Of a DNA stretch of 32,000 nt, positions 27,499-27,714 are shown piece after piece. Under the pieces are notes generated by a model. The model ran no database searches and had not been told where the DNA came from. It was given only the letters and a program-made list of their open reading frames with translations. The stretch lies in the NCBI GenBank assembly GCA_963675515.1, contig OY776328.1:2370001-2402000 (forward strand), in the 5' to 3' direction. The stretch's first letter is position 1. Every line of letters begins with the position of its first letter. Position numbers and translations under genes: made by a program. This stretch comes from Coprobacillaceae bacterium (GTDB lineage: Bacteria; Bacillota_I; Bacilli_A; Erysipelotrichales; Coprobacillaceae).

Positions 27499-27714
27499 TT
27501 AATATTTGTCCGATCCCTCATCGCCATATAGTGGCATGTTTGGGATTTTGCAGGCAGTATCGCCGACTTCGCAGTTGCAGCCCTCGGTGATGCTTGCCTC
27601 TTGCAAATCCACTGTTTCAGGATTTTGAACTATTACATTAATATGTCCACTGCCTCTTTCGGCGATCGAATCCAACATATTAACAAGATCGTCAATATTT
27701 TGTTCCTTAGACAT
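27499..27714 (-). CDS. Diverged paralog of the glycyl-radical domain lacking the radical glycine motif (71 aa)
   Basis: The N-terminal 35 aa are about 55% identical to the 79-aa ORF ([32 protein letters not shown] vs [32 protein letters not shown]). The tail [13 protein letters not shown] replaces [12 protein letters not shown]. Own SD: GAAGGA, 7 nt, ATG. Confidence 0.65.

Follow-up and report, generated by a model that had tools for sequence, protein, structure and literature searches.

A predicted three-piece pyruvate formate-lyase with a small cysteine-motif protein between catalytic core and radical module

A 32,000-nt stretch of a Coprobacillaceae genome (GenBank assembly GCA_963675515.1, contig OY776328.1, positions 2,370,001 to 2,402,000), hereafter the window, encodes what by its gene sequences is a natively three-piece pyruvate formate-lyase (PFL), consisting of a truncated catalytic core, a 71-aa protein with a cysteine motif and a detachable 79-aa radical module, GrcA3. 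No other glycyl radical enzyme (GRE) is as widespread as PFL, which has a central place in the fermentation of gut anaerobes, and in current accounts it consists of a single chain, to which enterobacteria add one spare-part protein. In the literature searched we found no description of a natively split PFL, of cysteine tails on PFL or of a protein of the 71-aa family. A 2026 review of GREs gives small subunits only for HPAD, BSS and MASS and none for PFL, for which YfiD is the only spare part (PMC13450708). We infer that the 71-aa protein is an accessory or spare-part type protein of a GRE, and we propose a mechanism by which it would act.

The split operon

All three genes lie on the minus strand, and coordinates here and below are those of the window. 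The core gene (27731..29794) encodes a 687-aa protein that is matched by Pfam PFL-like (E 9e-222) and by NCBIfam TIGR01255 (1110.7 bits, cut-off 994; profile positions 2-669 of 744 covered), and that keeps the Cys-Cys pair of the catalytic ACCVS motif. Its C-terminal end is incomplete: the Pfam Gly_radical profile is matched at positions 1-51 only, barrel strand beta10, the Gly loop and the C-terminal helix are missing, and the chain stops just past the conserved GKDD with an extra acidic segment of alternating hydrophobic residues. The missing half of the core's radical domain, RVSGYAV included, is found in the 79-aa protein encoded at 27245..27484, which matches Gly_radical positions 50-106 and consists of a helix, the beta10 strand, the RVSGYAV loop and the C-terminal helix. 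It scores 168.3 bits against NCBIfam NF038360 (rad_fix_GrcA3, 'autonomous glycyl radical cofactor GrcA3'; cut-off 158), and since this NCBI model exists, the short radical module is already known to curators.

Between the two lies the 71-aa gene (27499..27714). The 16-nt spacer before it (27715..27730, minus strand) holds its GAAGGA Shine-Dalgarno sequence, and the 14-nt spacer after it (27485..27498, minus strand) holds the AAGGAG Shine-Dalgarno sequence of grcA3. GAAGGA is part of GAAAGAAGGAATTAAG, just 5' of the 71-aa ATG, and relatives keep it (GAAAGAAGGTATTAAG, GAAAAGAGGTAATTAAC). By consensus scan only, the end of the operon is marked by a terminator-like hairpin and T-run (27219..27240) directly 3' of the grcA3 stop, and there is no terminator-like site among the three genes.

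Homologs, substitution rates and family searches together indicate that the 71-aa open reading frame (ORF) is a real gene under selection. Close homologs are rare, with only three among 5.8 billion proteins (100%, 87% and 82% aa identity). The 100% match has no contig on record, so gene context was taken from the two diverged homologs, the 87% one being a protein from an Erysipelotrichaceae metagenome-assembled genome (MAG); both stand in the same 687/71/79 arrangement with the frame intact, and the core/71/79 order recurs in 10 related contigs (L001-L010). In three pairwise comparisons (Nei-Gojobori, dS up to 1.5) the ratio of non-synonymous to synonymous substitution rates (dN/dS) of the 71-aa gene is 0.25, 0.07 and 0.07, with 0.035-0.043 for the core and 0.011-0.078 for grcA3. 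Constraint is stronger in its C-terminal half, where similarity to GrcA3 is absent (0.14, 0.04 and 0.04). A first-pass annotation of this DNA had noted the Shine-Dalgarno sequence and the intact frame, and had looked to conservation with dN/dS below 1 in relatives carrying the split locus; all of this is borne out, and the gene is functional rather than a decaying copy as judged by the intact frame in two relatives, the dN/dS of 0.07-0.25 and the conserved Shine-Dalgarno sequence. The small size of the ORF, the lack of a family match for the window protein and a codon bias weaker than that of its neighbours would fit a non-functional relic of tandem duplication or a mis-called ORF. That explanation, which we reject as vanishingly improbable, is contradicted by the low dN/dS at dS values of up to 1.5, by the at least 889 clusters that share motif and position (see below) and by the retained Shine-Dalgarno sequence.

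Codon usage of the 71-aa ORF is unlike that of its neighbours, as the first-pass annotation had pointed out. With the core as reference, the codon adaptation index (CAI) is 0.364 for the 71-aa ORF, 0.682 for the 79-aa gene and 0.763 for the core, and the GC content at third codon positions (GC3) is 0.437, 0.342 and 0.388, respectively. The middle gene has a lower codon adaptation than grcA3 in 31/33 loci (Wilcoxon p = 2.6e-8). The expression level, also expected to differ, is by this measure probably lower, which suggests a sub-stoichiometric servicing role for the 71-aa protein.

The small-protein family and its two halves

The 71-aa protein belongs to an unnamed family of small proteins that, by gene order, is consistently placed between a truncated core and grcA3. 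An exhaustive HMMER comparison of a three-sequence alignment with 1.84 billion representatives gave 57 clusters, nearly all of 61-94 aa and nearly all matched over query positions 1 to at least 60; the contigs of three of these representatives (P0124, P0129 and P0140) are only 0.5-1 kb long. A profile search of the 5.8-billion-protein set gave at least 889 clusters, none of them with a Pfam domain and every named one a 'hypothetical protein', and there is no dedicated Pfam or NCBIfam model for the 53 members examined. The family, with proteins of 60-90 aa, ranges over Lachnospiraceae, Ruminococcus, Oscillospiraceae, Clostridia and Erysipelotrichaceae. Searching the PDB with the family profile gave no meaningful match, not even PFL.

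The family consensus starts with IDD(I/L)V.MLD…G.GH.NV.V, continues with a variable linker of 15-25 residues and ends with [D/E]C..G[D/N].AC.[I/V]P[T/N][L/M] and an acidic tail. D15, C55 and P58 are invariant, and H24, N26, C48 and A54 nearly so. All 138 aligned members have two or more cysteines, the last two of them spaced C-x6-C in 123/138, and in 137/138 C-x-x-P is followed by T or N. Exactly two cysteines are found in 98/138 and three or four in 40/138; the cysteine loop holds a Gly in 123/138 members, so this residue is not invariant. The members are acidic, with a mean net charge of -9.5 (-18 to -5). The window protein, the seed of the family, scores 93.5 bits against the family hidden Markov model (HMM), has all invariant positions and carries 14 D+E against 4 K+R. 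Its parts, all encoded on the minus strand, are the N-module (residues 1-35, 27610..27714; helix and 'GH.NV.V' strand, defined by BLASTP, hhalign and AlphaFold2), the cysteine motif (residues 46-58, 27541..27579; C-x6-C-x-x-P-[T/N], from the family alignment) and the acidic C-terminal tail (residues 59-71, 27502..27540, from the charge statistics of the family).

Kinship with GrcA3 is confined to the N-module. BLASTP aligns the 71-aa and 79-aa proteins with 19/35 identical residues (54%, E 1e-11), in agreement with the roughly 55% N-terminal identity reported earlier, and hhalign of the family against GrcA3 gives a probability of 97% (E 4e-11) in an alignment that ends at residue 34. The NCBIfam GrcA3 model covers residues 3-35 only of the 71-aa protein (26.8 bits, cut-off 158), to which Pfam gives no match; across the family, weak GrcA3 matches are seen in 39/53 members (best E 1.5e-06) and Pfam Gly_radical in 1/53 (E 0.005). 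The N-module contains the helix and the barrel strand (beta10, 'GGxHLNVNV'), the latter with the nearly invariant H24 and N26, and its conserved residues are those that GrcA3 shares with all PFLs (helix and 'GGHHLNVNV' strand). An AlphaFold2 monomer built from the 138-sequence alignment has a helix at residues 2-20 and strands at 26-28 and 41-43, with a pLDDT of 60.

GrcA3 of the same locus is not a closer relative of the N-module (0.387 identity) than GrcA3 of other loci (0.389), and the N-module evolves faster, with a mean within-family identity of 0.45 versus 0.80 for GrcA3. Hence, it arose once, long ago, and is not being homogenised. The earlier suggestion that the duplication is old therefore holds, and by these identities the duplication predates the diversification of the carrier groups, from Lachnospiraceae to Erysipelotrichaceae.

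The first-pass annotation had gone further and described a 'dead' radical-domain paralog in which a cysteine loop replaces TVRVSGYAV in frame. That there is no radical glycine is confirmed, in that the RVSGYA(V) finger loop is not in the 71-aa sequence, and the description as a paralog stands for residues 1-34. The in-frame replacement has no statistical support. Homology ends at residue 34, and the loop-for-loop alignment, with the cysteine loop at residues 46-55 and the glycine loop at residues 48-56, is hence a positional correspondence at similar chain position and not a demonstrated substitution. As far as sequence comparison can tell, the cysteine motif is a separate conserved module and not detectably a mutated glycine loop. 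The 71-aa protein and GrcA3 (NF038360) are thus alike in their homologous first 34 residues, their length of ~70-80 aa, their operon and presumably their docking site; the 71-aa protein differs in having no RVSGYAV loop and no C-terminal helix, with Cys-x6-Cys-x-x-P and an acidic tail instead.

Formats of the cysteine element and its redox neighbours

With GrcA3 as bait and one genome per species, the best 80 of >600 matches were kept. GrcA3 is free-standing in 79 of these 80; one full-length PFL (L067) was recovered. The split loci come in three main types. In type A (10 loci among the best 80) the core ends …SLGKD(E)D at its stop codon and has no tail. In type B (28 loci, plus Helcococcus) an acidic linker and the cysteine motif are fused to the core, as in …GDIDVELDCSTGACSTPTLFEGLD or the shorter …ELEPDCACCEPN; the first sign of a fused motif was the 714-aa core of Helcococcus ovis, which ends …DLERVTDTCVGNACSIPTLKNINPDEGK. 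In type C (33 loci, plus the window) the acidic linker is followed by a stop and then by a separate family protein. Of the other loci, three have a core tail without cysteine and nine have no core adjoining GrcA3. The gene order of the window, followed by PflA and sometimes by a small ferredoxin next after it, is found in Clostridium sp. Marseille-P2415, Lachnospiraceae bacterium KM106-2 and metagenomic contigs (L017-L020), with a core of 680-686 aa, a small Cys protein of 66-89 aa, GrcA3 of 78-81 aa and PflA of 252-255 aa.

An HMM of the C-terminal part of the family, run against 5166 ORFs, matches the last residues of type B cores, with E-values of 1e-6 (L045), 2e-6 (L056), 1e-5 (L058) and 3e-5 (L074) and, more weakly, 4e-4 (L070), 1.3e-3 (L097) and 2e-3 (L091). 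These fused cores carry the cysteine motif without any GrcA3-like part. In trees of the core, all of them neighbour-joining trees, the fused and separate formats are clustered yet interleaved and require a minimum of 9 switches (7-12 over 100 bootstrap replicates), compared with ~20 when labels are shuffled. Given the single origin of the N-module, most switches were probably in-frame losses of the N-module that welded the motif onto the core (…VELD running directly into C..GAC…). We infer that the cysteine motif is the indispensable element and the GrcA3-like part a tether, needed only for a motif on its own chain.

Clustering of neighbouring genes covered 75 split loci. A thioredoxin-family gene is present in 9/10 type A loci (L041, L047, L054, L057, L060, L069, L081, L082 and L099), where it lies directly upstream of the tail-less core and co-directional with it; the same thioredoxin is found in none of the type B or C loci among the 75. 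Its product is a ~105-aa protein with the motif SGE[S/G]CANC that scores 40.5 bits against PF00085 (cut-off 23.5). A scan of metagenomes with this type A thioredoxin (metagenomic loci L102-L181) found a PFL gene immediately downstream in 56/57 testable loci. All of the complete cores in these loci (30/30) are truncated, at 674-691 aa, and stop at …GKDED without a cysteine tail, GrcA3 is next after 28 of these 30 cores, and no cysteine-motif ORF was found in the thioredoxin loci. We found no description of the type A thioredoxin gene in the literature searched. A second thiol-redox neighbour is a DUF1858/TIGR03980 protein ('hybrid cluster protein-associated redox disulfide domain', CxGC) in 11/75 split loci, 10 of them type C; the protein (L017, L018, L022, L075, L077, L079, L085, L090, L093, L097 and L100) is 63-90 aa long, has the motif HC[I/L/V]GCP and is usually encoded on the opposite strand upstream of the core. 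Judged by these distributions, split cores have a cysteine pair in cis or on a carrier, or else a private thioredoxin.

PflA is encoded in 64/75 split loci, usually directly after grcA3, and a 2x[4Fe-4S] ferredoxin in 14/75, after pflA. The frequent activase gene, together with the Gly in the cysteine loop of 123/138 family members, might point to a radical S-adenosylmethionine (SAM) substrate, that is, a peptide akin to ribosomally synthesized and post-translationally modified peptides or a second target of the PFL activase, with a modified Cys/Gly loop. We regard this as highly improbable: many genomes have this motif as the C-terminal end of an enzyme of 700 aa, not all members have the Gly, no recurrent protease, transporter or dedicated maturase genes were found nearby, and no radical-SAM gene adjoins the operon in this window.

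Two candidate partners of the cysteine motif in the other chains were rejected. A zinc clasp between the motif and GrcA3 histidines (HH of GGHHLNV and H of RTFH) fails on the presence of the same histidines in tail-less loci and in L067, so that they are features of the clade and not linked to the tail. Core Cys or His residues that track the tail were reduced to C118 and H400, which differ only between clades and are shared with full-length PFL, and are hence uninformative.

In L033, a Gastranaerophilales MAG, GrcA3 has a C-terminal extension ending …RTFHASLGNSCGC, which puts extra cysteines on the radical module, alongside a core whose tail is LDCGCCEGTCQ. In L005 (GCA_028690185.1) the 79-aa grcA3 is absent from the deposited gene calls; the ORF is present at ~6230..6469 and scores 178.9 bits against GrcA3, so that a very short gene was missed in annotation.

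Proposed function and its alternatives

At the centre of the barrel of intact PFL, the loop with Gly734 is set against Cys419/Cys418 (PMC13450708). Oxygen inactivation involves a sulfinyl radical on Cys419 besides cleavage at Gly734, according to work cited in PMC12288474 (Reddy 1998, Zhang 2001). An engineered truncated E. coli PFL (tPFL), which the core of the window resembles, is catalytically competent when complemented with YfiD, although binding is weak (PMC8683613). A truncated core and a free radical module are thus competent yet bind poorly, which makes extra factors plausible.

Against this background we tentatively propose that the 71-aa protein is a GrcA3-shaped carrier that would dock in the empty radical-module slot and present a dithiol to the catalytic Cys-Cys of the core, a reading that we find plausible while stopping short of calling it probable. 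With GrcA3 absent or destroyed by oxygen, the catalytic Cys-Cys of the split core would be exposed to solvent. The 71-aa protein would then enter the vacant slot through its N-module, and its cysteine pair would lie where the glycine loop normally sits, beside the catalytic cysteines; a GrcA3-type docking part with a loop at a similar chain distance from the strand is suited to such a slot. From there the dithiol arm could reduce oxidised catalytic thiols by thiol-disulfide exchange, or cap and protect them, before the protein yields to activated GrcA3. The new GrcA3 would mend the backbone damage, and the dithiol would mend or protect the cysteines. In lineages with a fused tail the same job would be done in cis, and in tail-less lineages by the dedicated thioredoxin in trans. 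The broader generalization, that split PFLs of anaerobes from gut and rumen come with a modular kit for repair and maintenance, made of a cheap, replaceable GrcA3 and a dedicated thiol reductant for Cys419/Cys418 (carrier protein, fused tail or thioredoxin), is possible and also more doubtful.

The same docking could serve a simpler end, in which the protein is a placeholder or competitor that fills the empty GrcA3 slot and stabilises the barrel or gates exchange, its cysteines being structural or redox-sensing. Homology links the N-module, which keeps D15, H24 and N26, to the docking part of GrcA3, codon adaptation is below that of grcA3, and the weak binding of YfiD by tPFL indicates that an incomplete core may need help (PMC8683613). 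However, the docking module was lost at least 7 times with the motif kept on the core, tail-less lineages have a thioredoxin and nothing in the way of a placeholder, and selection is strongest on the cysteine half rather than the docking half. As the docking part was lost repeatedly and the cysteine motif was kept, acting purely as a placeholder or competitor is not the essential function, and we consider this explanation unlikely. The first-pass annotation had offered a placeholder, competitor, cap, chaperone or redox/metal-sensing regulator; the pure placeholder fares poorly in this comparison, and the redox-linked option is retained.

In the class Ia ribonucleotide reductase (RNR) of E. coli, a cysteine pair at the C-terminus of NrdA swings into the active site and reduces its disulfide, and is itself re-reduced by thioredoxin or glutaredoxin. 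The dithiol exchange proposed here would resemble this as a functional analogy only. NrdA ends …QDDGCESGACKI (in longer form …DGAEDAQDDLVPSIQDDGCESGACKI, i.e. …GCESGACKI), a flexible acidic C-terminus with a close Cys pair, C-x-x-G-A-C, comparable to ELDCSTGACSTP and ELDCANGACASP in fused PFL tails; the motif of the window 71-aa protein is of the same form, the 71-aa family likewise has a close Cys pair on a flexible acidic C-terminal segment, and both systems are tied to thioredoxin-type partners. The enzyme families are unrelated, however, and the motif is too short to infer homology. Moreover, the PFL reaction consumes no reducing equivalents, and any role for a dithiol would hence be in maintenance or protection and not in turnover.

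A precedent within PFL is E. coli GrcA/YfiD, likewise a small protein, which replaces the C-terminal part of PFL through a strand inserted into the barrel (PMC8683613). YfiD has the radical glycine and a disordered N-terminus of 60 residues, whereas the 71-aa protein cannot carry a glycyl radical, and the split in the window is a native, permanent state rather than damage repair.

The iron-binding small subunits of other GREs (BSS beta/gamma, HPAD gamma, MASS beta/gamma/delta) are also small, cysteine-containing accessories (PMC13450708), and they frame another explanation, that Zn, Fe or a cluster is bound by the cysteines of the 71-aa protein, possibly those of two chains of the PFL dimer or with residues of the core, and serves to hold the complex together or to pass on electrons. 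Cysteines ligate the iron in every known GRE small subunit (PMC13450708), the 40/138 family members with three or four cysteines and fused tails with four (LDCGCCEGTCQ) would provide ligands, and a ferredoxin gene follows pflA in 14 loci. Each site in the known subunits, which are of HiPIP- or rubredoxin-like type and not related to the radical domain, has four ligands; in contrast, the 71-aa family has two conserved cysteines, a GrcA3-derived N-module and no detectable fold match. We found no four-ligand Cys (or Cys3His) site and no HiPIP- or rubredoxin-like pattern in the family, nor a Pfam or PDB match. Only two cysteines are conserved and 98/138 members have no more, the motif lies in a predicted flexible, highly acidic tail, and the thioredoxin of tail-less loci points to thiol-disulfide chemistry, so that a metal or Fe-S subunit appears decidedly unlikely.

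A third possibility, and in our view quite an improbable one, is that tail and motif are a strap that retains GrcA3 by binding to it or to the core-GrcA3 seam, making up for binding energy that the split chain no longer has. In E. coli, YfiD depends on residues 696-733 of oxygen-cleaved PFL for its binding (PMC8683613), and the fused motif is anchored right where the chain is broken and the N-terminus of GrcA3 docks. A strap would leave unexplained the invariant Cys pair, the replacement by thioredoxin in tail-less loci and the module of the separate form, which is GrcA3-like and not complementary to GrcA3.

Several observations weigh against the dithiol-carrier proposal itself. Type A is one clade, so that phylogeny confounds the mutual exclusion of thioredoxin and tail, which may go back to a single event. 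In this window no thioredoxin, DUF1858 or pflA gene adjoins the operon, and no pflA was found next to grcA3 or among the scanned window ORFs of >=100 aa. The fused forms have no docking module, and occupation of the GrcA3 slot is hence not universal; their cysteine spacing varies (C-x-C-C, C-x4-C, C-x6-C), and short CC-type tails ('DCACCEPN', 'GCC') are not significantly matched by the motif HMM, which leaves their relationship to the motif only positional. The AlphaFold2 monomer is weak, with the cysteine motif unstructured. So short a motif could resemble that of NrdA by convergence or by chance, and a metal site is possible, for example one formed by the two cysteines of the motif and the Cys-Cys of the core.

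Elsewhere in the window, the flanks of the operon hold PRD-domain regulators and a phosphotransferase system (PTS)/transketolase sugar cluster. Just 3' of the operon terminator lies a very acidic 86-aa ORF (26729..26989, minus strand), with synteny kept in relatives and a dN/dS of 0.22, which has no Pfam or NCBIfam match. A PTS EIIC gene (EIIC-GAT, ascorbate-type; 22600..24017, minus strand) is present as two overlapping ORFs of 258 and 217 aa. In relatives, EIIC is a single 472-aa gene (L001, 9702..11120), which suggests a frameshift in the window, whether the gene is a pseudogene or the sequence is in error. The span 421..6297 (minus strand) encodes a type I restriction-modification system that is complete (HsdM 535 aa, HsdS 401 aa, HsdR 1004 aa). 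Two neighbouring MinD/ParA-type P-loop ATPases, both with a 4Fe-4S ferredoxin domain inserted, are encoded at 14869..16558 (plus strand) and flanked by ORFs of ~120 aa (14553..14912 and 16563..16925).

Taken by their gene sequences, permanently split PFLs occur in a large group of Bacillota, in some Actinomycetota and in Melainabacteria-type genomes, and the majority also have a conserved cysteine-pair element, which takes one of three genetic formats. If the reading proposed here is true, the 71-aa protein would be the first accessory subunit described for PFL, and the first radical-domain paralog repurposed to deliver a dithiol into the active site of a GRE. Should the thiol-service model hold, it would become testable how strict anaerobes regain PFL activity after oxygen pulses, what becomes of oxidised Cys419 after damage by oxygen, and how an incomplete barrel stays competent until an activated radical module arrives. 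The three small genes are a clean natural system for the exchange of radical modules, and the family between core and grcA3 comprises at least 889 clusters that are now without annotation.

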